Shown one piece after another: positions 9,176-29,103 of a stretch of DNA of 29,803 bases (position 1 is the first letter of the stretch; each line of letters begins with the position of its first letter). Both the position numbers and the translations under genes were made by a program. This stretch comes from a virus. Lineage: Duplodnaviria > Heunggongvirae > Uroviricota > Caudoviricetes. The DNA is taken from positions 1-29,803 of IMG/VR virus record IMGVR_UViG_2571042390_000006, one strand, 5' to 3'. The notes below the pieces were generated by a model. That model had not been told where the DNA came from, did no database searches, and was given only the letters and a program-made list of their open reading frames with translations.

Positions 9176-10135
9176 ATGAAAATTTGTATCGACGACGGCT
9201 CCACCAACATCAAGCTGGCATGGACTGAGAACGGCGAACGCCGCAACGCCATCAGCCCGAACAGCTTCAAGTCGGAATGGTCTGCGCCGTTCGGTGGCAC
9301 GCAGCCCGCGAACTACATGCTTGATGGCGTGCGCTATGGTTTTGATCCGGTCAGCGATCGCTTTGTCCAGACAACCGACACGCAATACCAGTACAGCGAT
9401 GTGAATGTCATTGCCATTCATCACGCGCTGGTCAAATCAGGCATCACGCCACAGGAGGTGGATGTGGTTGTCACCCTGCCACTGAGCGAGTATTTCGACA
9501 CAAACGCACAGCCGGACATGGCCAACATCAACCGCAAAAAAGCGAACGTTATGCGCCCGGTGGAGTACCAGAACGGCGAAGCATTCACTATCCGTAACGT
9601 ACGGGTTATGCCTGAATCCATTCCGGCTGGCTTTAAGGCACTGGCTGACATGAGTCCGTTTGAATCCCTGCTGATTGTGGATTTAGGCGGAACCACGCTG
9701 GATGTGGCAAAGGTTCAGGGACAACTGGCAGGTATCAGCCAGGTGTTTTGCGATCCACACGTAGGCGTTTCCCTGATGGCCGATGCCGTACTGTCGGTGA
9801 TGGCCACTAACGGTATGCGTACCAGTCACCACATCGCCAATACCATTATCGAACATCGCCATGATGAAGCCTGGCTGCGCCAGCACATCCACAATGACGC
9901 GCATTACGCCAGCCTGATGGCGGTTATTCGTGAAAAGGAAGAAACACTGAAACAACGCGTGATCCGCGCGCTGGCGGGTTTTTCGGGTTACGGGCGGGTG
10001 ATGGTTGTCGGTGGCGGGGCGGAGATTGTGGCACCCGCTATCCGCGAAGCCTGCGGAGTTAATGCGACTTTCATCGCGGACGGGGTGCCACAGTTTGCTC
10101 TGGTTAATGGGCTGTACGCAATGGACAAGGAGTAA
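9176..10135 (+). CDS. parM: ParM/StbA-family actin-like segregation ATPase
   Basis: 319 aa. N-terminus MKICIDDGSTNIKLAW and the motifs VMPESIPAG, DLGGTTLD and VVGGGAE align with plasmid R1 ParM as I recall it. AAGGA RBS. Confidence 0.82.
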   Translation: MKICIDDGSTNIKLAWTENGERRNAISPNSFKSEWSAPFGGTQPANYMLDGVRYGFDPVSDRFVQTTDTQYQYSDVNVIAIHHALVKSGITPQEVDVVVTLPLSEYFDTNAQPDMANINRKKANVMRPVEYQNGEAFTIRNVRVMPESIPAGFKALADMSPFESLLIVDLGGTTLDVAKVQGQLAGISQVFCDPHVGVSLMADAVLSVMATNGMRTSHHIANTIIEHRHDEAWLRQHIHNDAHYASLMAVIREKEETLKQRVIRALAGFSGYGRVMVVGGGAEIVAPAIREACGVNATFIADGVPQFALVNGLYAMDKE

Positions 10136-10139
10136 ACCA

Positions 10140-10451
10140 ATGACGACACCAACCAGACGGATAAGTTTCTATCTGAAGCCCGCCGCCGTCAAGAACGAAG
10201 GCGAAGCATGCGCCTGGCTGGACAGCCTTACACCAGAAGCCCGCAAAAGCGGCCAACGCGTGGCTTTTCTGGCCGGGCTGGCACTTCTGAAAATGAATCC
10301 GGCAGAGGCTTACCGACTGGCTGCATGGGCTGATGATGAGGCGTTATCAGTGACACAAACCAGGACAGAACGCCCCGCGTCACAGCCAGTATCAGCCGCA
10401 CAGATAACCAGTCAGATGGCCGGAAATATCCGGGCGTTATTTCCCGAATAA
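10140..10451 (+). CDS. parR: ParR-like centromere-binding adaptor (RHH)
   Basis: Internal ATG directly after the parM stop with an AAGGAG RBS. RRISFYLKP...WLDSLTPEARKSGQRVAFLAGLAL...NIRALFPE parallels R1 ParR (RRTIAFKLNP...TLDSIPQGERSRLNRAALTAGLAL...NILRSLFPKE). Confidence 0.7.
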   Translation: MTTPTRRISFYLKPAAVKNEGEACAWLDSLTPEARKSGQRVAFLAGLALLKMNPAEAYRLAAWADDEALSVTQTRTERPASQPVSAAQITSQMAGNIRALFPE

Positions 10452-11735: not shown

Positions 11736-12782
11736 TCAGGATGTGGGCTGGGTGTCTAACAGTGCGTAAGGGTTAAAGCGGATCACCTCTTCGCCAAGCC
11801 AGTCATTGATGTGCTTCATGGCCTCCATGACAGGCATCAGCTCGTTAATTGCGTAAACCCGCGCGGCCTTCTCCACATCACCAAACGCACTTTTTTCGCC
11901 CGGCATCGCCCCCATCAGTTGCGGCGGAACGCGGTGCGCAGCCAGCACATCATCACGGGATGCCGCCTTAACATTCATGAACTCATCTTTTGCGGTGATC
12001 TGCTGGAACGGCAAAATTTGCACCCCCTCTTTGCCCCCGTTGGGCGCATGAATGAGCACGTTTTTAAATGCACCACCACCACGCGCACCCTGTAACGTTT
12101 CTTTCAGGGAGTCCATGCTTTCGCGGTTTACCTGCGCTGCACCGATGTAGATGATGCACCCGGCGTGGGATCCGTTGTCGTAGTACAGTTTTCTGAACAT
12201 GTCCGCCGAATGAGAAAGGCTGGCCGAGAGTAATGCGCCAAGATATTCCGGCATGCCGTAGATTTCCTGGTTAATATCCGGATTCATCAGGTGGCACACT
12301 TTGCCAGGGCGAAACTGGAACGCGTCCTTGCCATCCTGCACATACCACCATGATTCAAGATCGCTTCCGCGTCGCATGTATTTCGCCAGGGCGTGCCGTA
12401 ATTTAAGCGGTTCGCCGAGCATATTGCTACGAAGCTCAAGGAATGCGTTACCGAACACAAACCAGTCCAGCGCCAGCGCCGAGAAATCCTGCCGGGAAAG
12501 CAGCGGGTGCGGGATGTAGCAACCGAGTAATACATTGCGCTTAAAGTAAAGCGCAGACTGATGCCAGGACGTTTGCCGGGCAGCTCTTGCCAGACCGTAC
12601 CAGTCCACCGGGGTTTCATACCACCGCCCGTTATCAGCACAGTACATATTATCCAGCAGGTCATGCCCGGTCAGGCGATAAGGACCATCAAATGTGAATG
12701 CACTGAGCGATGATTCTTTCCTGAGCGCATCAGCGAGATCAATGCGTGAACTCATGCGCACTTTTTTATTTTTTCTGCTCAT
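11736..12782 (-). CDS. Q: Portal (capsid portal vertex) protein, P2 gpQ family
   Basis: 348 aa. Size, position and overall sequence match P2 Q. Its start overlaps the P stop. Confidence 0.88.
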   Translation of the reverse strand: MSRKNKKVRMSSRIDLADALRKESSLSAFTFDGPYRLTGHDLLDNMYCADNGRWYETPVDWYGLARAARQTSWHQSALYFKRNVLLGCYIPHPLLSRQDFSALALDWFVFGNAFLELRSNMLGEPLKLRHALAKYMRRGSDLESWWYVQDGKDAFQFRPGKVCHLMNPDINQEIYGMPEYLGALLSASLSHSADMFRKLYYDNGSHAGCIIYIGAAQVNRESMDSLKETLQGARGGGAFKNVLIHAPNGGKEGVQILPFQQITAKDEFMNVKAASRDDVLAAHRVPPQLMGAMPGEKSAFGDVEKAARVYAINELMPVMEAMKHINDWLGEEVIRFNPYALLDTQPTS

Positions 12783-14485
12783 CAGAACTCCATAACCGTG
12801 AAACGCTCGTTTTCTCCTTCGCCGCCAATCGGTTCGTTAATGACAGCAAGCATGGTTGCCCACGCAAGGTCGCCGTGGCTGATCCCCCTCGCTCGGTCCG
12901 TTTCGTAAGTGATAAAGCCGCCCGGTGTTTTCACCTTACGCACGGCGTTAAAGGCCGCGACCAGCTCGCGTTCGGCGCGATCGTATTCCCACCGCCCGGC
13001 ACGCATTATTTGCAGCATTTTCAGTACCAGCGACCGTTTTGATGACAGCGTGAAGGTGTACGGAATAGCAGCAGGGAAAAACCGTTTCACTATCTGATAA
13101 ACAGCCTCCCCGTTCCCGCCCGTCACATCAATGCCGATGTGTTCCACGTTATAGCGACACGTGAACTCTTCAATGACTCTGGCCTGTTCTTCAAACTCCA
13201 GCCCCTGAACGCGTCGCGTCTCCACCGTTCGGAAACGGCCACCAGGAACAGCCGGAGGAACCACCACGGACACAGCACCGCTGTCGCCGTTGCCACTGCT
13301 GCCGTTTGCGTCATACCCAATCCATACCGGACGATTCCCCATCGGGCGGGGAGCAAAAGGTTTCCAGTCTTTCCAGTCGTCGTATCCGTCAACACCGCAG
13401 CCAATCAGGATATTCAGGTTAAATGCCGATTCCCCTTCGCGGACAAACTCACACATATAGAGATTGAGGAACTCGTCTTCGGTGTTTTCATCACGAATTT
13501 CGTCGATATCGGTGTGTTTCCAGCCGTGATTAACCACATCTTCCAGCGTGACAATTTGCCGCCAAGTCCGGTCAGGGCAGATAAGCCCGTTATGCAGCGT
13601 TTTCCAGTCCACAGAAAAACGCTGGCGTTTATGCGAGGCCTTTTTCTCGTTCCAGCGGTCGCCGTTCCAGTAGGCGTACGCCTCGTGCGTTTCGGTGGAT
13701 GGCGTGGAGAAGTAGGTGCGCCGCAGTCCGCTGAGGGTTGCCATAGCGCCAGCCACCTTGCGCAGTTCAGCAAAGCGACTGACCCAGAAAAATTCATCAA
13801 AATAAAAATTGCCCGTATAGGACTGTGCCGACGCAGCAGAAGTGCCGAGAAAATGCAGCTCTGCGCCGTTGGAGAGGATGATTTTATCGCCCCCTTTCAG
13901 CTCCACATCAACTTCAGCCGCGACCTTCTGAATAATGCTTTTAAACTGGAACGCCTGACGACGCGACGCAGACAAAAAAATCTGGTTACGCTGGTAAGGT
14001 TGCGCCACATCGTCACGCAGCGCCATCAGCAGAGCTTCCTGTGCAAAATACCAGGTCGCCCCAATCTGTCGGGATTTCAGGATCATCCTGTTACGTATCC
14101 CGGCTTCCCTGCAAAGTGTCAGGGAGTCAAACCAGCCCCGCTGATGCCACTCCAGCCTGCTGATGATTTTTTCCCGCAGTGCGGCAATCTGTTCCGGCGT
14201 GAAATGATTTTTAAGTTTTTTCGCCCGGCCTTTCTTTCCTGCGGCCATCACATCCGGCTGGCCATCATGCAGCTTTTTAAGCTGCCGGGTCAGCAGGTCT
14301 ATTTCCTTAAAGTCACCGCCTGTTTTATTCTGTTTTTCAGTAAGCTGGATGAGGCGCGCATCGATGGACTGCGTGACACGCTGCACGGGGGGCGTTTCAT
14401 CCCACTGGTCGCGTTTTTTCCACGCATAAATCGTGTTCGGGTTTATTCCCATCAGACGTGATATTTCTGCGGGCGGATACGACAC
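12782..14485 (-). CDS. P: Terminase large (ATPase) subunit, P2 gpP family
   Basis: 567 aa. Size and position match P2 P; sequence is characteristic of the family. The start appears to be GTG at 14483-14485. Confidence 0.88.
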   Translation of the reverse strand: MSYPPAEISRLMGINPNTIYAWKKRDQWDETPPVQRVTQSIDARLIQLTEKQNKTGGDFKEIDLLTRQLKKLHDGQPDVMAAGKKGRAKKLKNHFTPEQIAALREKIISRLEWHQRGWFDSLTLCREAGIRNRMILKSRQIGATWYFAQEALLMALRDDVAQPYQRNQIFLSASRRQAFQFKSIIQKVAAEVDVELKGGDKIILSNGAELHFLGTSAASAQSYTGNFYFDEFFWVSRFAELRKVAGAMATLSGLRRTYFSTPSTETHEAYAYWNGDRWNEKKASHKRQRFSVDWKTLHNGLICPDRTWRQIVTLEDVVNHGWKHTDIDEIRDENTEDEFLNLYMCEFVREGESAFNLNILIGCGVDGYDDWKDWKPFAPRPMGNRPVWIGYDANGSSGNGDSGAVSVVVPPAVPGGRFRTVETRRVQGLEFEEQARVIEEFTCRYNVEHIGIDVTGGNGEAVYQIVKRFFPAAIPYTFTLSSKRSLVLKMLQIMRAGRWEYDRAERELVAAFNAVRKVKTPGGFITYETDRARGISHGDLAWATMLAVINEPIGGEGENERFTVMEF

Positions 14486-15194
14486 GTTTATTTCATACCC
14501 GAAGCTTGATGCCTGGGCGGCTCACAGCGATTTTCAGTCGCGCATCAGCACACAGATTGCCCGGCAGGTGGCGCTTGACCGCATCATGATCGGCTTTAAC
14601 GGCACATCACACGCGGAAAAATCCAATTTCAGCACCAACAAGCTGCTTCAGGACGTTAACGTGGGCTGGCTGGAGCACATCAGAACCGATGCCAGTGAAC
14701 GCGTAATGAATGACGTGACGCTGACTTCCCGCAACATGGACAACACAGTGGCGCACGCGGGTAAGTATGCGAACGCTGATGCACTGGTACAGGACGCGCG
14801 CTCATCCCTGCTGGATGAATGGCACAAGGAAGCAGACGACCTCGTGGTGATTATGGGGCGCAACCTGTTTAACTCGCTGCGTCTGCCCGTGCTGAACAGC
14901 ATCAGCGGCCAGAATCCCAATGCGGAATTACTCGCCGGACAGCTCATCCTGTCATCGCGCACCATTGGTGGGCTGGATGTATTCCTTGCGCCGTTCTTCC
15001 CGGATGCAACGATGCTGATCACCTCATTCAACAACCTGTCAATTTACTGGCAGAGAGGCTCAATGCGTCGCCTGATGAAAGACGAGCCGGAATACAACCG
15101 CATCGCCACCTACCAGTCCATCAATGACGCTTATGTCGTTGAAGACTATGGCAAGTGCGCGATGGTCACAGGCCTGAAGTTCGCCGACAGCTAA
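14486..15194 (+). pseudogene. N: Major capsid protein (P2 gpN family), 5'-truncated fragment
   Basis: Homology to the C-terminal two-thirds of P2-type major capsid protein begins immediately beside the P start codon (YPKLDAWAAHSDFQ...DYGKCAMVTGLKFADS). No scaffold gene and no P/O intergenic region are present. Confidence 0.65.
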
Positions 15195-15239
15195 TCAACT
15201 CACGGCGGGCATCATGCCCGCCTGTAACGGAGAGAAAGA

Positions 15240-16181
15240 ATGATTACCCCTGCACAGCAACACTGGCAGAACGTGATGGCGCAGCGCGCAGGCCGGGCGA
15301 ATGAAGGCGTGGATCACGCCGCACGTACCGCGCATGAAGAGGTGCTGTATCGTCTGCGTCTGGCACAGGCCCGACTTAAGGGCGTACAGGCCAGAAGCGC
15401 CAAAGCCGCCATCAAAAAAGAGTTGTTACCGGACTTTTCCGGCTGGATTGAAGGAACGCTGGAGGCTGACGGCGGGCAGCAAGATGAGGTGATTGCCACG
15501 CTGATGGTGTGGGCGATTGACTGCGGCGATCTTCCGCTGGCATTGCGTATTGGTGCGTATGTGGTCCGTCACAACCTCATCATGCCGGATAACTTTGGCC
15601 GTACTGCTGCCACGGTACTGACCGAAGAAATCTGCAACCCGGTACTGACGCAGGCCGGGACGGATGCCGACGCGGATTTGTCCGCCTTTATCGAACCACT
15701 GGACACACTTTGGGAAATTGTCGCCAACCAGGATATGCCGGACGAAGTGCGCGCCAAATTATGCAAGGCGTGCGCCTTTGCCCGCCGTGGCCTGAGCGAT
15801 GCGGACAGCATGGCCTCATCACTGAAGCTGCTGCGCGAAGCGATGCACCTGAACCCGAACGCAGGTGTGAAACGCGAGATTGCAACCCTTTCCCGCGCCC
15901 TGAAAAAAGCCGATTCCGCAGCCGAACCAGAAGACGCCAGCACACCGCAGGCGCAGGACGAAAGCAGCAAAAGTAAAAAGACAACGCGGAAGCCTGCAAC
16001 ACGAAAAACCACCGCGACGCAGAAGGCGAAGCGCGGTTACACCGACACAAAGGGACCATCAGCGCACTGCGCCGGGCCATTGAGCCGCTGGGATACCTCA
16101 TTCGCGTGTCTGAGTGGTGGGAGTTCGACGGCGAACCCGGAACATTCAAGGTTGATGTTGGCACGCTGGACAGTGGTGTGA
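15240..16181 (+). CDS. M: Terminase small (endonuclease) subunit, P2 gpM family; 3' end uncertain
   Basis: N-terminal 250 aa match P2 M, including the basic tail KKTTRKPATRKTTATQKAKRG. The ORF then runs on as junk-like sequence overlapping the L-like frame. Confidence 0.7.
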   Translation: MITPAQQHWQNVMAQRAGRANEGVDHAARTAHEEVLYRLRLAQARLKGVQARSAKAAIKKELLPDFSGWIEGTLEADGGQQDEVIATLMVWAIDCGDLPLALRIGAYVVRHNLIMPDNFGRTAATVLTEEICNPVLTQAGTDADADLSAFIEPLDTLWEIVANQDMPDEVRAKLCKACAFARRGLSDADSMASSLKLLREAMHLNPNAGVKREIATLSRALKKADSAAEPEDASTPQAQDESSKSKKTTRKPATRKTTATQKAKRGYTDTKGPSAHCAGPLSRWDTSFACLSGGSSTANPEHSRLMLARWTVV

Positions 16182-16339
16182 CCGAGGAAATGTATCTGGA
16201 AATGGAACGGCTGATTGCCGATGCCAAACCCGCAAGTCGCCACCTTATCGGCCTGAACATTATCCAGGACATTCCCGGCTATCTGTATACAGGCGGTGTG
16301 GTCTGTGATGGTGATGTTATTACTGTTTATCCCGGATAA
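16106..16339 (+). CDS. Probable head completion protein fragment (gpL-like), start unresolved
   Basis: The reading frame is open from about 15977 but has no ATG before the GTG at 16106. It ends 10 nt before H. Shorter than P2 L. Confidence 0.35.
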   Translation: MSEWWEFDGEPGTFKVDVGTLDSGVTEEMYLEMERLIADAKPASRHLIGLNIIQDIPGYLYTGGVVCDGDVITVYPG

Positions 16340-16349
16340 GTGAGAAACA

Positions 16350-19007
16350 ATGAGCACGAAATTTAAAACCGCTATCACTACTGCCGGAGCCGCGAAGCTG
16401 GCAGCCGCCACTGTCCCCGGCGGGAAAAAAGTAACTCTGTCTGCAATGGCCGTGGGTGACGGTAATGGCAAATTGCCGGTGCCGGATGCCGGTCAGACGA
16501 AACTGGTGCATGAGGTCTGGCGTCACGCTCTGAATAAAGTCAGCGTGGATAACAAGAATAAAAACTATATCGTGGCTGAACTGGTTGTACCGCCAGAAGT
16601 GGGCGGCTTCTGGATGCGTGAGCTGGGTCTGTATGACGATGCCGGAACACTGATTGCGGTCGCTAACATGGCGGAAAGCTATAAGCCTGAACTCGCTGAA
16701 GGCTCCGGGCGCGCGCAGACCTGCCGCATGGTTATTACTGTCAGCAACGTAGCGTCCGTTGAGCTGAGTATTGATGCCAGCACAGTGATGGCGACGCAGG
16801 ATTACGTCGATGACAAAATCGCAGAGCATGAGCAATCCCGCCGCCATCCTGACGCCACGCTGACAGAAAAAGGTTTTACTCAGTTAAGTAGCGCAACAAA
16901 CAGCACCAGTGAAGAGCTGGCGGCAACGCCAAAGGCAGTAAAAGCAGCCTATGACAATGCTGAAAAACGTATGCAGAAAGACCAGAACGGTGACGATATT
17001 CCAGATAAGGGCGCTTTTCTGGACAATGTTGGCGTTACCAGCCTGACGTTTATGAAAAACAATGGCGAAATGCCGCTTGATGCTGACTTGAATACATTTG
17101 GTCCCGTTAAGGCTTATCTTGGCGTCTGGTCTAAAGCTACATCCACTAACGCGACGGCTGCTAAAAATTTCCCTGAAGACGGTGCAGTCGGTGTACTGGA
17201 GGTATTCAATGGCGGTAATTTTGCAGGAATGCAGCGTTACACCACCAGAACAGGCAATGTTTATATGCGCAACCTTTCTGGCACATGGAATGGTTCAGAC
17301 GGTCCGTGGAGTTACTGGCGTCAGGTTCAGTCTGCAACACGCCCCCTGAGCACAACCATTGACCTGAACACGCTCGGAGGCGCAGAGCATCTTGGTTTAT
17401 GGCGAAACAGTAGTGGCTCAATCGCTTCATTTGACCGCAACTATCCGGAAGAAGGAAGTTATGGTCAGGGACTCCTTGAAGTTCTTGAAGGTGGTGGTTA
17501 CTCGCGAACGCAGCGTTACACGACCCGCCGTGGAAATGTTTATGTTCGCTGTCTTTCGGCCTCGTGGGATGCAGAGAACCCACAATGGGAGCCGTGGTCA
17601 AGAGTGGGCTACCAGTCAGAAAGCCGTTATTACGACGGTGATTTGAATGATGTAACCTCACCAGGTATTTACAGCGTTACAGGTAAAGCGACCAATGGTC
17701 CAATACTGGACGGAAACGGCGTGACTGTACTCGGTATTCTGGAAGTGCTGAGGCGCTTTGATGGCGTTAACGTATGGCAACGTTATACAACCGCCGGAAC
17801 AGGTGCAACCCTTAAAGGTCGCACGTTTGAGCGCGTTTATACCGGCAGCTCGTGGAGCGAATGGCGGGAAGTTTACACATCTTATTCACTTCCCCTGAAT
17901 CTGGGTATCGGTGGCGCAGTGGCAAAACTCACCAGCCTGGACTGGCAGACCTACGATTTTGTGCCGGGCAGTCTGATAACCGTTCGGCTTGATAACATGA
18001 CCAATATTCCCGACGGTATGGACTGGGGCGTCATTGATGGCAACCTGATAAACATCGCAGTTGGTCCGAGTGATGATTCTGGTACGGGGCGCTCAATGCA
18101 TGTATGGCGCAGCACTGTAAGTAAAGCGAATTACCGCTTTTTTATGGTTCGCATTTCAGGAAATCCGGGAAGCCGCACGATTACGACAAGACGTGTGCCA
18201 ATTATCGACGAAGCTCAGACATGGGCGGCGAAACAGACATTCAGCGGTGGTCTTTCAGGCGAACTATCCGGCAATGCTGCTACAGCAACAAAGCTGAAAA
18301 CGGCAAGGACAATTAACGGCGTAAAATTTGACGGCTCGGCAAATATTGAAGCGTTTCCGCCAGGTGTTCCGCTGCCGTGGCCATCAGATACTGTGCCGTC
18401 TGGTTACGCCCTGATGCAGGGACAGACTTTTGACAAATCTGCATACCCGAAACTTGCAGCCGCTTATCCGTCAGGCGTGATCCCGGATATGCGTGGCTGG
18501 ACAATCAAGGGCAAACCCGCCAGTGGTCGGGACGTATTGTCTCTGGAACAGGATGGCATTAAATCGCACACCCACAGCGCCAGCGCATCCAATACGGATT
18601 TGGGTACGAAAACCACATCTTCGTTTGATTACGGTACTAAATCAACGAATAACACAGGTGCACATACCCACAATGTATCTGGTACTGCAAATAGTGCTGG
18701 CGCACATACTCATACCGTTCCATTAAGGAGACCAAACAGTGGCGGTATGAATTTCGACTGGCTGGATGGTGCATCAAGTGGCACGGTGGTGGGGAATGGA
18801 ACTGTGCCTTCTTCTGGCGCACATACCCACTCAGTATCAGGTACCGCTACAAGTGCTGGGGCACATGCACACACTGTTGGTATTGGCGCTCATACGCACT
18901 CTGTTGCGATTGGTTCACATGGACATACCATCACCGTTAACGCTGCTGGTAACGCGGAAAACACCGTTAAAAACATCGCATTTAATTATATTGTGAGGCT
19001 TGCATAA
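16350..19007 (+). CDS. H: Tail fiber protein (P2 gpH family) with divergent repeat-rich receptor-binding region
   Basis: N-terminus [25 protein letters not shown]...EVWRHALNK...[29 protein letters not shown] matches the P2 H N-terminus. Three internal QRYTT..GNVY..LS..W repeats and C-terminal GAHTHxV repeats. Confidence 0.88.
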
Positions 19008-19624
19008 TGGCATTCAGAATGAGTGAACAATCACGTACTGTAAAAATTTATAACCTGCTGGCCGGAACTAATGAGTTTATTGGTGAAGGTGACGCATATA
19101 TTCCACCTCATACAGGGCTGCCAGCTAATTCTACAGATATCGCCCCACCGGAAATTCCTGCTGGCTTTGTGGCAATTTTTAACAGTGAAAATGAATCGTG
19201 GAATATTGTTGAAGACCATCGTGGTAAAACGGTCTATGACGTGGCATCGGGGGACGCGTTGTTTATTTCTGAACCCGGACCGCTACCAGAGAATGTCACC
19301 TGGTTGTCGCCAGCAGGGGAATATCAGAAGTGGGACGGCGTATCCTGGGTGAAGGATGAGGAAGCAGAAAAGCTGTTTCGGATACGGGAAGCGGAAGAGA
19401 AAAAGGCAAGGTTGATCCAGGAGGCAACAGATAACATCGCAATTCTGCAGGATGCAGTTAATCTTGAAATAGCAACAAACGAGGAAAATTCACAACTGGA
19501 TTCCTGGAGAAAATACAGAGTATTAGTGAGTAGAATTGACACCAGTACAGCTCCGGATATCGTATGGCCAGAGCTGATGAATCAGGGTTATGTGCGGGAG
19601 GACGAGCAGATAACTTCAGACTGA
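19007..19624 (+). CDS. G: Tail fiber assembly chaperone (gpG/Tfa family)
   Basis: 205 aa. Start overlaps the H stop (TAATG). C-terminal region [23 protein letters not shown] is typical of Tfa proteins. Confidence 0.8.
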
Positions 19625-20151
19625 AATTTAGTGATGAATGTTGAATCATCAGGAATATCATGCAATACCAATGCATGAGCACCTATTGTGACATTGTTTC
19701 CTATACGCACTTTGCCACCAAGAATGGTGGCATTACAACCAATGGTCACATTATGTCCTATAACAATATCCATATCATTAAAATCACCACGTAGCCCAAT
19801 AGTTACCCCCGGTTTTATTGAACAATTTTCACCGATTGTTACTTTGTGACCGATAACAACACTGTTGAGATAAGAAATATCAAAGCCTTTCCCTATATTT
19901 ACAGTTAAAGGGACTGTTACATTATATTTATCAAGAATGAAACGTTCTATTTTCCCCGCAATCTTCCGGCAGTATCCGCCTTTATCAAAAAGGTATTTGG
20001 CTATGCGCCACCAAAATAAATAACGAAGTCTTCTATGTTTTATTGCGCGAACAATTGCCTTTCGCCAGGAGAAAGGACGCTCGCTACCGATTACTTCATA
20101 GTGAATACAGTCTTTAAGTTCATTAATATTCATATCTCTATTATTCAGCAT
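19588..20151 (-). CDS. Hexapeptide-repeat (left-handed beta-helix) acetyltransferase, CysE/WcaB-like
   Basis: 187 aa with repeated [LIV]-G-x-x-x-x hexapeptides ([22 protein letters not shown]...[34 protein letters not shown]). AT-rich. Convergent with G and overlaps its 3' end. Occupies the position of Z/fun in P2. Confidence 0.78.
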
Positions 20152-20313
20152 AAGATAATCATGTGACCAATTATTGTAATAATTTTAATGGTATGTTTCT
20201 ACTGGCTATCCAGCATGTCTGATACCCAGTAACAAATCGTTAACGCGGGTGCAATCAAATGGTGAGTGTTAAGACTGGCCACTTATTACCAGGTATGAGT
20301 GGCCAGCATTAAA

Positions 20314-20808
20314 TCAGAACAGCCCTTTAACTGAACTGGCCGCGCTGTTAAGGGATGATGTCACTTTATCTTTGAAGCCGGACAGCATATCGCTGAACGA
20401 TGAGGATTGCAGGCGCTCCCGCAAATCCTCATCACAGCGTTCAAGGGTCAGTGAAAATTCTATCTTTTTCGCCTTACCGTAGCGATCAAACTCGGAACGG
20501 GTCGTGTTCGTTCCGGTCAGGACATACATGCCGTAAATCTGCCCGACGCCATCAATCAAAGGCCAGGGTCGTCCTGTATACGCCTGCGTGGTCAGCAGCG
20601 ACAGCGACACTTCGCCACCTGTAATTTCAGGATAAAGCACACCAGAAAGAACGATGCGATCATCACCTGCACCGATATACTGCCAGCTTGCTGAACGGTT
20701 AACGCGTTCATTTTTCACATGCCGCCAGCTTTTGTTTTGCTGTAACTGCTGATGCGGCAGCGTGCGCAGCTCAAAAACAAACATGCCGTAGATCATCATC
20801 ATGGCCAT
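20314..20808 (-). CDS. U: Tail protein gpU family
   Basis: 164 aa, downstream of the tape measure gene on the same strand; resembles P2 U. Confidence 0.75.
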   Translation of the reverse strand: MAMMMIYGMFVFELRTLPHQQLQQNKSWRHVKNERVNRSASWQYIGAGDDRIVLSGVLYPEITGGEVSLSLLTTQAYTGRPWPLIDGVGQIYGMYVLTGTNTTRSEFDRYGKAKKIEFSLTLERCDEDLRERLQSSSFSDMLSGFKDKVTSSLNSAASSVKGLF

Positions 20809-25889: not shown

Positions 25890-26046
25890 AGCTTCAGCCC
25901 CTTGTATCCGTTAAATGATTCGGCAACAATCATCACCCACCACGCGCGTAATCTCACCCCTGCGCCGTTCTCTCGCCACGGCGACAACAAAAAGCAGTAA
26001 CCCCCTCCGCACGCACATGCGACCATGCCGCACAGGGAGGGAGCAG

Positions 26047-27156
26047 ATGACCGACACCACCATGCAATTGCTCAGTCAGGGCACAGACCCCGTAAAAATG
26101 CCGGATTTTGATATTCTCGCGGAGGGTAAAACGCTGTCAGGCGTGGCAGAGCGCCTGATGAGCCTGTCACTGACCGACAACCGGGGATTTGAGGCGGACC
26201 AGCTCACCATCACGCTGGATGATGCGGATGGTCAGTTGCAGCTACCGCCACGGGGCGCGCGCCTGACGGTTCTCATTGGCTGGAAGGGAGAACCGCTGAC
26301 AGAAAAAGGCACTTACATTGTTGATGAAATCGCTCACGAAGGACCGCCGGACAGGCTGACTGTTTCAGCCAGAAGCGCAGATTTTCGGGATGAATTTAAC
26401 GTTAAACGTGAGGTGTCCTGGCATGATGTGACCGTTGAGCGTGTGGTATCCGCCATCGCTCATCGGTATGGTCTGAAACCGCAAATCAGCGAAATGCTGA
26501 TGGATATCGAAATCGACCACGCCGACCAGACCGAAGAAAGCGACATGTCCTTCCTTACGCGCATGGCGGAAATGCTGGGCGCAATCACTACGGTAAAAAG
26601 CGGTAATCTGTTATTCATCATGCCAGGCGGTGGCGTGAACGCACAGGGCCAGCCGTTGCCCTCGTTCGCCATCACGCGCAGCAGTGGCGATCGCCATCAG
26701 TTCCGCATTGCTGACCGCGAAGCGTATACGGGGGTACGCGCTTACTGGCTTGATCTTAATTACGGGAAAAAGAAAAAAGTCAGCGTGAAACGCCGCAAAC
26801 CGCCAAAACCCAAAAAGGAGAAAAGCAGCAGCCGTGAAGGTGATTATATGGAAGGCGCGGAAGGCAATGTGTTTGTGTTACGCAAGACCTATCAGAACGA
26901 ACAGGCAGCAAGACGCGCAGCGGCGGCAAAGTGGCAGCAGCTACAACGCGGAGCCGCATCATTCTCCATCACGCTGGCGCGTGGACGTGCAGAACTCTAC
27001 CCCGAAATGCATGGTACGGTAACAGGATTTAAAAGCGAGATTGATAATCAGGACTGGATCATTGCAAAAGCCGAGCACACTATTGATAACAGCGGCTTTA
27101 CCACGCAGCTTGAGCTTGAGGCAAAAATCCCGGAATGGATAGCGGAAACAGAGTGA
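26047..27156 (+). CDS. D: Tail protein / late control gene D protein (gpD family)
   Basis: Internal ATG with a GGGAGGG RBS; about 369 aa, similar in length to P2 D. Divergent from FI. Confidence 0.82.
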   Translation: MTDTTMQLLSQGTDPVKMPDFDILAEGKTLSGVAERLMSLSLTDNRGFEADQLTITLDDADGQLQLPPRGARLTVLIGWKGEPLTEKGTYIVDEIAHEGPPDRLTVSARSADFRDEFNVKREVSWHDVTVERVVSAIAHRYGLKPQISEMLMDIEIDHADQTEESDMSFLTRMAEMLGAITTVKSGNLLFIMPGGGVNAQGQPLPSFAITRSSGDRHQFRIADREAYTGVRAYWLDLNYGKKKKVSVKRRKPPKPKKEKSSSREGDYMEGAEGNVFVLRKTYQNEQAARRAAAAKWQQLQRGAASFSITLARGRAELYPEMHGTVTGFKSEIDNQDWIIAKAEHTIDNSGFTTQLELEAKIPEWIAETE

Positions 27157-27648: not shown

Positions 27649-27789
27649 ATGTCGCAAAAATCGCTTACGGCCATCACGTTCTGCGTGACGGTAATCCTCA
27701 TCATCTGGATGCTGCACGGTTCGCTGTGTGAAATACGGATGAGCTTCTGGGGAGCGGAGTTTGCGGCGTTCTTACAGTGTAAGCAGTAA
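27649..27789 (+). CDS. Hok/Gef-family type I toxin (46 aa)
   Basis: AAGGAG RBS. Product MSQKSLTAITFCVTVILIIWMLHGSLCEIRMSFWGAEFAAFLQCKQ has an N-terminal TM helix, the SLCEIR signature and an AAFL.CK tail as in HokA/Hok. Below the ORF-track size cut-off. Confidence 0.7.
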   Translation: MSQKSLTAITFCVTVILIIWMLHGSLCEIRMSFWGAEFAAFLQCKQ

Positions 27790-28800: not shown

Positions 28801-28887
28801 TGGTACCCGGAGCGGGACTTGAACCCGCACAGCGCGAACGCCGAGGGATTTTAAATCCCTTGTGTCTACCGATTCCACCATCCGGGC
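28801..28887 (-). tRNA. leuZ: tRNA-Leu (anticodon UAA)
   Basis: Reverse complement reads GCCCGGATGGTGGAATCGGTAGACACAAGGGATTTAAAATCCCTCGGCG...GGGTACCA: cloverleaf, long variable arm, anticodon loop UUUAAAA, 3' CCA. Confidence 0.95.
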
Positions 28888-28899
28888 TCGGGAAGAAAG

Positions 28900-28973
28900 T
28901 GGAGGCGCGTTCCGGAGTCGAACCGGACTAGACGGATTTGCAATCCGCTACATAACCGCTTTGTTAACGCGCC
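28900..28973 (-). tRNA. cysT: tRNA-Cys (anticodon GCA)
   Basis: Reverse complement reads GGCGCGTTAACAAAGCGGTTATGTAGCGGATTGCAAATCCGTCTAGTCCGGTTCGACTCCGGAACGCGCCTCCA. Confidence 0.95.
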
Positions 28974-29027
28974 AAATTCTTCAGGCCTTTCAGCCAGACA
29001 TCCGCTTGAGGCCGATGTCTTTTAAAC

Positions 29028-29103
<76 letters not shown>

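Follow-up and report, generated by a model that had tools for sequence, protein, structure and literature searches.

A tail-fibre-linked protein of serine acetyltransferase fold in a P88-like Escherichia coli prophage, a possible envelope-modifying cargo enzyme

Introduction

Phage enzymes that modify the bacterial surface shape serotype, phage susceptibility, and the targets of vaccines and phage therapy. To our knowledge, the known phage acetylases are membrane enzymes of the AT3 type and a single left-handed beta-helix (LbH) example, NeuO. The latter, encoded by prophage CUS-3, is an O-acetyltransferase of the Escherichia coli K1 capsule; the enzyme confers protection from K1 phage, and its gene has persisted in CUS-3 prophages undergoing decay (PMC9659370). 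Enzymes of the AT3 type are integral to the membrane and exert their activity during or after export (PMC9558356). The present study concerns an acetyltransferase-like gene of another kind, located on the minus strand at 19588-20133 of the window, by which we mean the whole stretch of DNA that was analyzed (29,803 nucleotides, positions 1 to 29,803 of IMG/VR record IMGVR_UViG_2571042390_000006). The window is a segment of an E. coli chromosome with a P88-like prophage (Xuanwuvirus, Peduoviridae; P2-related), the host being of the enterotoxigenic (ETEC) type.

The product of this gene is modeled as a shortened serine acetyltransferase (SAT) fold in which a tyrosine occupies the position of the catalytic histidine, and the gene lies tail-to-tail with the tail fibre assembly gene (tfa), in the company of which it is found on three different phage backbones. 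We tentatively read it as functional prophage cargo (a ‘moron’), i.e., a conversion enzyme that may be expressed in the lysogen and modify an envelope glycan; this is a real possibility, held at somewhat less than even confidence.

Results

A shortened serine acetyltransferase fold

The mechanical list of open reading frames (ORFs) starts the gene at its first ATG, six codons ahead of the probable true start. The relevant features are as follows (aa, amino acids).

19588..20151, minus strand: acetyltransferase-like ORF, 187 aa from the first ATG, as in the mechanical ORF list
19588..20133, minus strand: probable true coding sequence of the SAT-fold LbH acyltransferase-like protein, 181 aa, by the RefSeq start and homologue alignment
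20134..20151, minus strand: six extra codons (MLNNRD) of the 187-aa ORF, probably 5' untranslated region (UTR), confined to the E. coli clade, other relatives starting at the second ATG

The second ATG (20133, Met7) is the start in the RefSeq annotation of an identical locus and in all homologues, which leads to the 181-aa form. Residue numbering nonetheless follows the 187-aa ORF here, such that Tyr94 corresponds to Tyr88 in the shorter form. An initial annotation, made from the window sequence alone, had extended the element from 19588 to 20313; the ORF part of this extent was found to be sound, while 20152-20313 is an upstream non-coding region outside the gene. The same annotation was titled ‘AT-rich’, in agreement with the GC content of 0.35-0.37 across 19600-20200 versus about 0.50-0.58 in both flanks, although its statement that the AT content was well below that of the flanks was inverted, the GC content being the lower one. 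The gene thus deviates in base composition from the flanking phage genes, as is typical of a moron.

The protein belongs to the hexapeptide-repeat superfamily, with a score of 47.5 bits (E=1.1e-12) against a cut-off of 27 for Pfam Hexapep (PF00132). An AlphaFold2 model, built for the monomer from 95 homologues, had a pLDDT (per-residue confidence) of 91.9, and consisted of four N-terminal helices followed by a beta-helix with short beta-strands every 5-6 residues. When this model was searched against the PDB, all 50 top matches were LbH serine acetyltransferases, with TM scores of about 0.7 normalized to the query; a fold search of viral structures in BFVD returned poor matches only (TM at most 0.4) and was uninformative. 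The sequence alignments to PDB entries begin only at about chain residue 110-160 of the solved SATs, and no SATase_N Pfam match was found in the protein. The model therefore points to a shortened SAT fold of the LbH class, and the protein, small and cytoplasmic, is presumably a trimer.

The initial annotation had named the protein a CysE/WcaB-type LbH acetyltransferase and had proposed a profile assignment to a subfamily. Branch and fold were supported, since the protein is closest to the CysE/WcaB/EpsC branch of LbH acyltransferases, whereas membership in a subfamily was not, as none of CysE, WcaB, EpsC, Maa, LacA, Vat or CatB reached its curated cut-off. The best NCBIfam family was EpsC (NF041874), with 81 bits against a cut-off of 150, followed by CysE (TIGR01172, 70.6 bits versus 210.65; PRK11132, 44.4 versus 397) and WcaB (NF007564, 61.9 bits versus 196; TIGR04016, 59.8 versus 194.65). 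LacA (31.6 bits versus 347) and Maa (30.5 versus 314) also fell short, and the protein is accordingly not a member of the NodL/LacA/Maa branch; the NCBIfam scores of Vat and CatB were 22-27.5 bits against cut-offs of 300-475. The acetylation of streptogramin or chloramphenicol that had been envisaged at first was not supported, the matches to such acetyltransferases being to generic coils only, with 24-27 bits versus cut-offs of 300-475. In PHROGs, the protein matched phrog_2154, a phage family of unassigned function, over its full length (E=7.2e-79; its residues 5-186 aligned with positions 2-184 of the 185 in the profile), and in PADLOC-DB it matched 0 families at E up to 0.1.

Substitution of the catalytic site under purifying selection

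The active site of the Neisseria gonorrhoeae SAT is formed by Asp96, Asp161 and His162 of one subunit and by Asp147, Glu170, Arg196 and His197 of the neighboring subunit; its catalytic dyad, His162 and Asp147, corresponds to His158 and Asp143 in E. coli (PMC8786284). HMMER alignments to the solved SATs placed ‘GFDISYLNS’ of the query opposite ‘GLMLDHATG’. Asp96 falls in the N-terminal part, outside the alignment; the other residues were mapped by it as follows.

N. gonorrhoeae SAT Asp147: Thr79 in the window protein
N. gonorrhoeae SAT Asp161: Ser93
N. gonorrhoeae SAT His162: Tyr94
N. gonorrhoeae SAT Glu170: His102
N. gonorrhoeae SAT Arg196: Met
N. gonorrhoeae SAT His197: Asp

Thus, the catalytic His-Asp dyad and the mapped serine-binding residues are all substituted, and 0 mapped SAT residues are kept. 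The name ‘serine acetyltransferase’, under which the family is commonly found in databases, is therefore a misnomer. Two of the positions that define the window's clade are encoded at the following sites.

19870..19872, minus strand: codon TAT of Tyr94, in the SAT catalytic His column, by alignment to PDB SATs, opposite the His of ‘LDHATG’
19810..19812, minus strand: codon CCG of Pro114, one beta-helix coil after Tyr94, a clade-specific change

Among the 95 homologues, the catalytic column holds His in 84, Tyr in 8 and Asn in 3. It is likewise His in 138 of the 149 aligned sequences of a representative search, made up of the 146 best cluster representatives (from a search of 1.84 billion proteins) and three members of the window's own clade. 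Apart from two isolated cases, the Tyr is restricted to this clade, where all members of at least 53% identity have it, Hafnia phage yong2 among them, and where its codon is kept as TAT or TAC in 9/9 genes; family members at 34-50% identity, including ESSI2_ev015, phiNP and JL22, retain His. The Pro114 column behaves similarly in viral contigs, with Pro in the window's cluster and its 77-aa fragment cluster, and Gln or His in the other 24 clusters; in the sequences of the representative search, it holds Gln in 99, His in 20 and Pro in 14. These substitutions suggest that either the chemistry or the acceptor probably differs from that of the His-bearing relatives.

The clade genes bear the signature of constraint. 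Pairwise ratios of non-synonymous to synonymous substitution (dN/dS, Nei-Gojobori) were 0.04-0.09 wherever dS was unsaturated; the window gene differs from the P1-like copy by 29 synonymous and 10 non-synonymous changes, and from the 47-kb plasmid copy by 13 synonymous and 2 non-synonymous ones. Such low ratios argue that the acetyltransferase-like protein is functional and maintained by selection.

The gene moves together with the end of tfa

On the other strand, the gene faces tfa, which is itself preceded by an 885-aa tail fibre gene. The features that bear on this pairing are listed below.

19007..19624, plus strand: tfa, 205 aa, the convergent partner (Pfam Caudo_TAP, E=1.6e-39)
19574..19624, plus strand: Tfa C-terminal tail after the conserved ‘WPE’, 16 aa and stop, by Tfa comparison; reads the antisense of the acetyltransferase 3' end
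18375..20221: module common with P1-like IncY phage-plasmids, comprising fibre tip, tfa, acetyltransferase gene and about 70 bp upstream (blastn against pET6.1-IncY, 94.7% over 1847 nt)
16880..20404: module common with 47-kb phage-plasmids and phage vB_EcoM-613R2, comprising most of the fibre gene, tfa, acetyltransferase gene and a 3' remnant of the tail gene gpU (blastn, 92.2% over 3536 nt)

Of 5426 complete E. coli genomes, 183 contain the acetyltransferase gene with its upstream region, which occupies 157 places on chromosomes and 59 on plasmids. It is also present in 58 PLSDB plasmids, whose sizes fall into two classes of about 47-49 kb and about 94-140 kb, and tfa was annotated beside it in nearly all of the records listed. 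Three backbones could be recognized among the carriers, namely P88-like prophages, 47-kb phage-plasmids with P2-like baseplate genes plus repA, and P1-like IncY phage-plasmids. The 5' two thirds of tfa are lambda-Tfa-like and common, and the wider region was matched by thousands of genomes. The 3' third (19405-19587), on the other hand, occurs in 172 E. coli genomes, a set of nearly the same size as the 183 of the acetyltransferase gene, and the homology to phage JL22 breaks at 19404; together, these two results define a minimal unit of the tfa 3' third, the acetyltransferase gene and the promoter region. Judged by these distributions, the gene travels as one unit with the tfa 3' third, usually also with the fibre tip, across three phage backbones. 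The pairing with the fibre module, as first claimed in the initial annotation, was in fact understated, since the unit moves between three backbones and a convergent tfa or fibre gene also accompanies homologues that are only 34-53% identical. The distribution also suggests that integrated P88-like phages and their plasmid-borne relatives exchange DNA. The 47-kb phage-plasmids (e.g., pSCU-204-5, locus L012) carry the fibre/tfa/acetyltransferase module together with the gpU 3' remnant.

The convergent 3' overlap of the two genes, also proposed initially, was confirmed as 37 nt (19588-19624), and it implies convergent transcription through both 3' ends. In relatives, acetyltransferase and tfa are separated by gaps of 15-43 bp instead, and a similar overlap in a metagenomic contig involves an ORF other than tfa; the overlap was thus rejected as a conserved regulatory feature. 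The window Tfa ends 18 residues after ‘WP’, versus 2-7 residues after ‘WP’ or ‘FP’ in eight other Tfa proteins. The overlap is thus a by-product of the junction that became fixed in the clade, the Tfa frame running on into the antisense of the acetyltransferase gene.

The wider family

A scan of viral contigs recovered 80 loci of the family, which formed 26 clusters at 90% identity. In the window's cluster, all but two copies have a convergent tfa 12-20 nt away. There were 24 His-type clusters (34-49% identity), 10 of them with a convergent tfa within 100 bp; in four more, loci are convergent to an ORF beside the baseplate genes that was read as a fibre gene from its position after ORFs of gpJ and gpI size; it has no Pfam match. 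Other loci of the family adjoin a tape-measure-like gene, an integrase or the contig end. The convergent arrangement with tfa or fibre genes recurs in Hafnia phage yong2, Citrobacter phiNP and P1-like JL22. In JL22 (L017, 2904-5120), the homologue lies in the invertible C segment between U and tfa, with the two convergent tfa genes on either side, such that its orientation to outside promoters would flip; the authors of JL22 state that its role is unknown. In Streptococcus phage 9871 (L102, 2991-5537), of the virulent dairy 987 group of S. thermophilus, a 31%-identical homologue is encoded on the same strand, between the holin and a BppU-N/right-handed beta-helix baseplate protein that directly precedes it. 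Phages of Gram-positive hosts are thus included in the link to host-recognition genes.

Three of three sampled cellular homologues, of the same length and 31-38% identical, reside in polysaccharide gene clusters, where their neighbors are glycosyltransferases, a Wzx-type flippase, NeuB, CMP-sugar genes and a polysialyltransferase-like gene. This location favors a sugar as the acceptor. As separate observations, a 48%-identical, His-type homologue of 208 aa occurs in E. coli (L004-L007, 6001-6627) at the edge of a different P2/HP1-like prophage, adjoining the host mntR region, a few genes away from the tfa and fibre genes of that phage, and an ORF convergent to another homologue in a viral contig (L078, 3021-4124) has a sub-threshold match to glycosyltransferase family 9, the heptosyltransferases (21.5 bits versus 22), which is a faint hint of a link to the core of lipopolysaccharide (LPS).

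Expression signals and natural loss

The region upstream of the coding sequence and the site of a natural interruption contain the following features.

20173..20201, minus strand: promoter-like element TAGAAA-17 nt-TACAAT, 9/12 consensus match
20274..20307, minus strand: stem-loop with a 10-bp stem, located between the gpU stop, which it follows immediately, and the acetyltransferase promoter region (-19.3 kcal/mol, z=-3.2 versus shuffled)
19932..19940: site of IS1 interruption in sister ETEC strains, with a 9-bp duplication, where two match blocks of L003 (3941-4710) overlap by 9 bases and flank IS1; intact in the window

The promoter-like element lies inside the upstream stretch (to 20221) that is common to all three backbones, and in the P1-like copy its -10 hexamer is TATAAT. 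The stem-loop at 20274-20307 has no T-run and was not called by the terminator scan; it is possibly a terminator or insulator of the tail operon. No tandem repeat was found in 19500-20400, where phase-variation repeats like those of neuO were sought. Inverted repeats that would join the 5' UTR to the coding region at long range were also considered and discarded as chance, the best score being equal to the shuffle mean and 62 of 100 shuffles scoring at least as well.

Fourteen E. coli records contain the 100%-identical allele, and in six of them, all ETEC (E925, E8, E54, E1620, E1648 and E1654), IS1 is inserted inside the gene. Pseudogenes in relatives had been named at the outset as evidence that would speak against a function; they do exist among the identical alleles (6/14), yet they are opposed by the family-wide dN/dS of 0.04-0.09. 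The IS1-split strains (e.g., LR883050) are natural knock-outs that can be compared with intact sister strains (e.g., CP024232), as isogenic pairs that already exist. Another variant is seen in E. coli 99-3165 (L013, 4506-5468), where a deletion joins window position 17501 to 19666; it takes away the fibre C-terminus, tfa and the last ~26 acetyltransferase codons, and RefSeq still annotates an open 179-aa ‘serine acetyltransferase’ there.

The host prophage and the insertion slot

The chromosomal side of the prophage is seen at the right end of the window, where a cluster of tRNA-Leu(taa), tRNA-Cys and tRNA-Gly (28801-29103) stands with pgsA. Beyond the acetyltransferase gene, the minus strand continues with gpU and the tape measure gene.

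20314..20808, minus strand: gpU tail gene, the neighbor on the other side (Pfam Phage_P2_GpU, E=1.5e-38); P88 homology resumes at 20309

The prophage is a defective remnant. Its major capsid gene (14433-15194) is without the first ~105 profile positions, gpM (15240-) runs straight into the 3' end of gpI (16037-16339), gpD is partial, and the scaffold, head-completion, lysis, tail-completion and baseplate genes are missing (window 11736-16339 and 25915-27156). It follows that, in this genome, the neighboring tail fibre does not belong to a functional virion. The prophage also carries ParM-type partition genes and a Hok/Gef toxin gene (9176-10451 and 27649-27789).

In phage P88, the slot between tfa and gpU is filled by an inverted second set of fibre and tfa genes plus a DNA invertase; in the window, P88 homology sets in again at 20309, which is five bases beyond the stop codon of gpU. 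In a search meant to explain the loss of this invertible segment, remnants of gix/cix-like crossover sites gave a single match, far away and at chance level. The initial annotation had equated the slot with the position of Z/fun in P2, which is right insofar as both are variable slots by the fibre genes; identity of the two cannot be upheld, because the tail operon is inverted and the gene sits between tfa and gpU, and the positions are therefore analogous only.

Discussion

The reading that we favor, tentatively and with somewhat less than even confidence as stated above, is that of a lysogenic conversion enzyme acting on an envelope glycan. The protein is a member of the broad branch of WcaB-/EpsC-type polysaccharide O-acetyltransferases. 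Transcription would start from its own A/T-rich predicted promoter, convergent to the late fibre operon, and such a promoter suggests expression in the lysogen rather than as a late gene. In the cytoplasm, the enzyme would use acyl-CoA to modify a sugar of an envelope-glycan precursor, and the changed surface would be met by incoming phages, with receptor masking and superinfection exclusion as the outcome, or by the animal host. The clade has swapped the general-base His for Tyr and the neighboring Gln for Pro under strong purifying selection. Modification of a receptor, which had been regarded as plausible from the start, is thus something that we infer for this protein.

Several results weigh against this reading and should be considered together. 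The catalytic His is absent in the window protein, and with the other mapped SAT residues lost as well, ordinary O-acetyl transfer cannot be assumed. The terminator scan found no terminator downstream of the gene on its strand. Strict co-variation of enzyme and fibre tip had to be rejected on the evidence of JL22, in which the fibre tip is 69% identical and the acetyltransferase, of the His type, only 37%. The carriers span many serotypes and pathotypes (O6:H16, O166:H15 and O80:H26 among them) from pigs, poultry and humans, and this breadth, along with the imperfect co-variation, argues against a single, serotype-specific O-antigen as the target. The place beside the fibre genes is a slot for cargo in general, and a role connected with the receptor does not follow from it. 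The gene is, moreover, dispensable in the window's own lineage, as documented by the six IS1-split copies of the 14 identical alleles. Lastly, our literature search found no functional study of any family member, and the papers that mention homologues call their role unknown or list them as generic ‘fitness’ cargo.

The altered active site lends itself to a further interpretation, which we consider rather unlikely, in that the protein may be neofunctionalized or non-catalytic. O-acetylation would then have been lost after the His-to-Tyr and Gln-to-Pro changes, and the protein would either N-acylate an amine, or bind acyl-CoA or a sugar so as to inhibit or sequester a host pathway. Not only is a near-universal His (84/95; 138/149) replaced by Tyr, but the other five mappable positions of the SAT active site differ too; the changes are fixed and under purifying selection, and of the 26 viral clusters, Tyr and Pro are found only in that of the window and the fragment cluster. 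It is also to be noted that N-acylation needs no general base, and that some LbH N-acetyltransferases, of the QdtC and WlbB type, work without a catalytic base. Nonetheless, scaffold and CoA-facing coils show the conservation seen in active relatives, and the part of the base could still be played by the Tyr or by the neighboring His102, a residue that the yong2/P0014 sub-branch does not conserve. A bolder proposal, improbable in our estimate, makes use of the same substitutions and of the joint transfer. The fibre tip, Tfa and the Tyr-type enzyme would form a portable ‘adsorb-and-lock’ module of host range, in which the enzyme has been re-tooled to modify the receptor of the co-transferred tip, for instance by N-acylation, or on a conserved envelope glycan such as the LPS core or enterobacterial common antigen (ECA). 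If this were true, one recombination event that brings in the module would give any phage or phage-plasmid both a new receptor specificity and the superinfection exclusion to match.

Anti-phage defense or counter-defense directed at something other than a glycan (a small molecule, nucleotide signal, protein or nucleic acid) is a reading that we likewise consider improbable; the gene would then occupy a variable slot of the type that houses defense systems in P2-like phages. The slot is hypervariable, with an invertase and second fibre set in P88, and the gene has survived in a prophage that is itself a remnant; in P2, the analogous place is taken by Z/fun, and the hotspots of P2-like phages are rich in defense genes. 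These points are countered by the lack of any matching PADLOC model, the presence of a single gene with no partner, and the nearest cellular relatives, which are in polysaccharide clusters. Physical inseparability from the tfa 3' third, the persistence of the IS1 knock-outs (6/14 identical-allele records), the deletion variant without the 3' end of the gene, and the decay of the surrounding prophage would all be natural for a neutral passenger that hitch-hikes with the fibre-tip/tfa module and has no present function in the host. Such neutrality is, however, quite improbable, given that dN/dS is 0.04-0.09 with synonymous divergence saturated between clade members, that most of the 185 E. coli records are annotated as an intact coding sequence, and that the family is kept at 34-53% identity across genera in the same position. 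A genuine serine O-acetyltransferase, serving as an auxiliary metabolic gene that boosts cysteine synthesis, would account for the RefSeq name and for CysE enzymes being the best PDB matches in both sequence and fold. It is nevertheless very hard to reconcile with the failed TIGR01172 and PRK11132 cut-offs, the missing match to the SATase N-terminal domain, the substitution of all six mapped N. gonorrhoeae SAT residues, and a length of 181 aa versus about 270; the protein ends in ...SSRT, presumably not a CysK-binding tail. Hardly more credible is a xenobiotic acetyltransferase (XAT) for streptogramin or chloramphenicol, or a small-molecule enzyme of the Maa/LacA type, as the weak NCBIfam matches to Vat, CatB, Maa and LacA (E of 1e-7 to 1e-4) amount to 22-32 bits versus cut-offs of 300-475, extending over no more than one or two hexapeptide coils of a generic kind, and the fold and N-terminal domain are SAT-like rather than XAT-like.

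Whichever of these readings applies, the locus belongs to a widespread, uncharacterized family of soluble SAT-fold proteins, whose genes are systematically located tail-to-tail with tfa in temperate phages and phage-plasmids of Enterobacteriaceae, the P2-like and P1-like ones among them. The His-to-Tyr change under strong selection offers a compact test case for the re-tooling of LbH active sites. If the gene only hitch-hikes with the fibre module, it would be an ordinary cargo gene.

Comparison with known systems

NeuO offers a close parallel in genetic setting. Like neuO, the window gene is a single prophage-borne LbH gene that lies beside the host-recognition end and is intact in a decaying prophage. 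The two differ in that NeuO belongs to the NodL/LacA/Maa branch, whereas the window protein has a SAT-like fold with Tyr for the catalytic His; no chain of NeuO or of a polysialic-acid O-acetyltransferase was present among the 54 PDB sequence matches. The expression of NeuO is, in addition, phase-variable via heptanucleotide repeats, whereas the window gene is without a tandem repeat. In function, NeuO alters a phage receptor and protects against superinfection (PMC9659370). The AT3 seroconversion enzymes (Oac of Sf6, GtrC and OafA) share the proposed role, i.e., lysogenic conversion by acetylation of a surface glycan, but are unrelated in fold and topology; the window protein is predicted to be soluble and would have to act on cytoplasmic precursors.

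In terms of the protein itself, WcaB and EpsC are the best profile matches and have the same size and architecture, and the cellular homologues of the window protein are also found in polysaccharide clusters. However, the scores are far below the curated cut-offs of 150-196, the His is replaced by Tyr, and the window gene is phage-borne, placed between tfa and gpU and not in the colanic acid (wca) cluster. Among solved structures, CysE comes nearest both in fold (TM about 0.7) and in sequence (6wye, 4n69), although the window protein is without about 90 N-terminal residues, and its dyad and serine-binding residues are replaced. Z/fun of P2 and other cargo in the fibre-proximal variable slot of P2-like phages resemble the window gene, itself a single gene of low GC content that has been placed behind fibre and tfa in a P2-related phage; they differ in that the neighbor in P88-like phages is gpU of an inverted tail operon, the slot is normally occupied by an invertible fibre segment plus invertase, and the window cargo is fused to the tfa 3' end, with which it moves. 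Overall, the gene is already known, in the sense that it is annotated in many records and catalogued as a PHROG family; its distinctive traits are the SAT-type fold, the fixed tail-to-tail coupling to tfa, and the His-to-Tyr active site.

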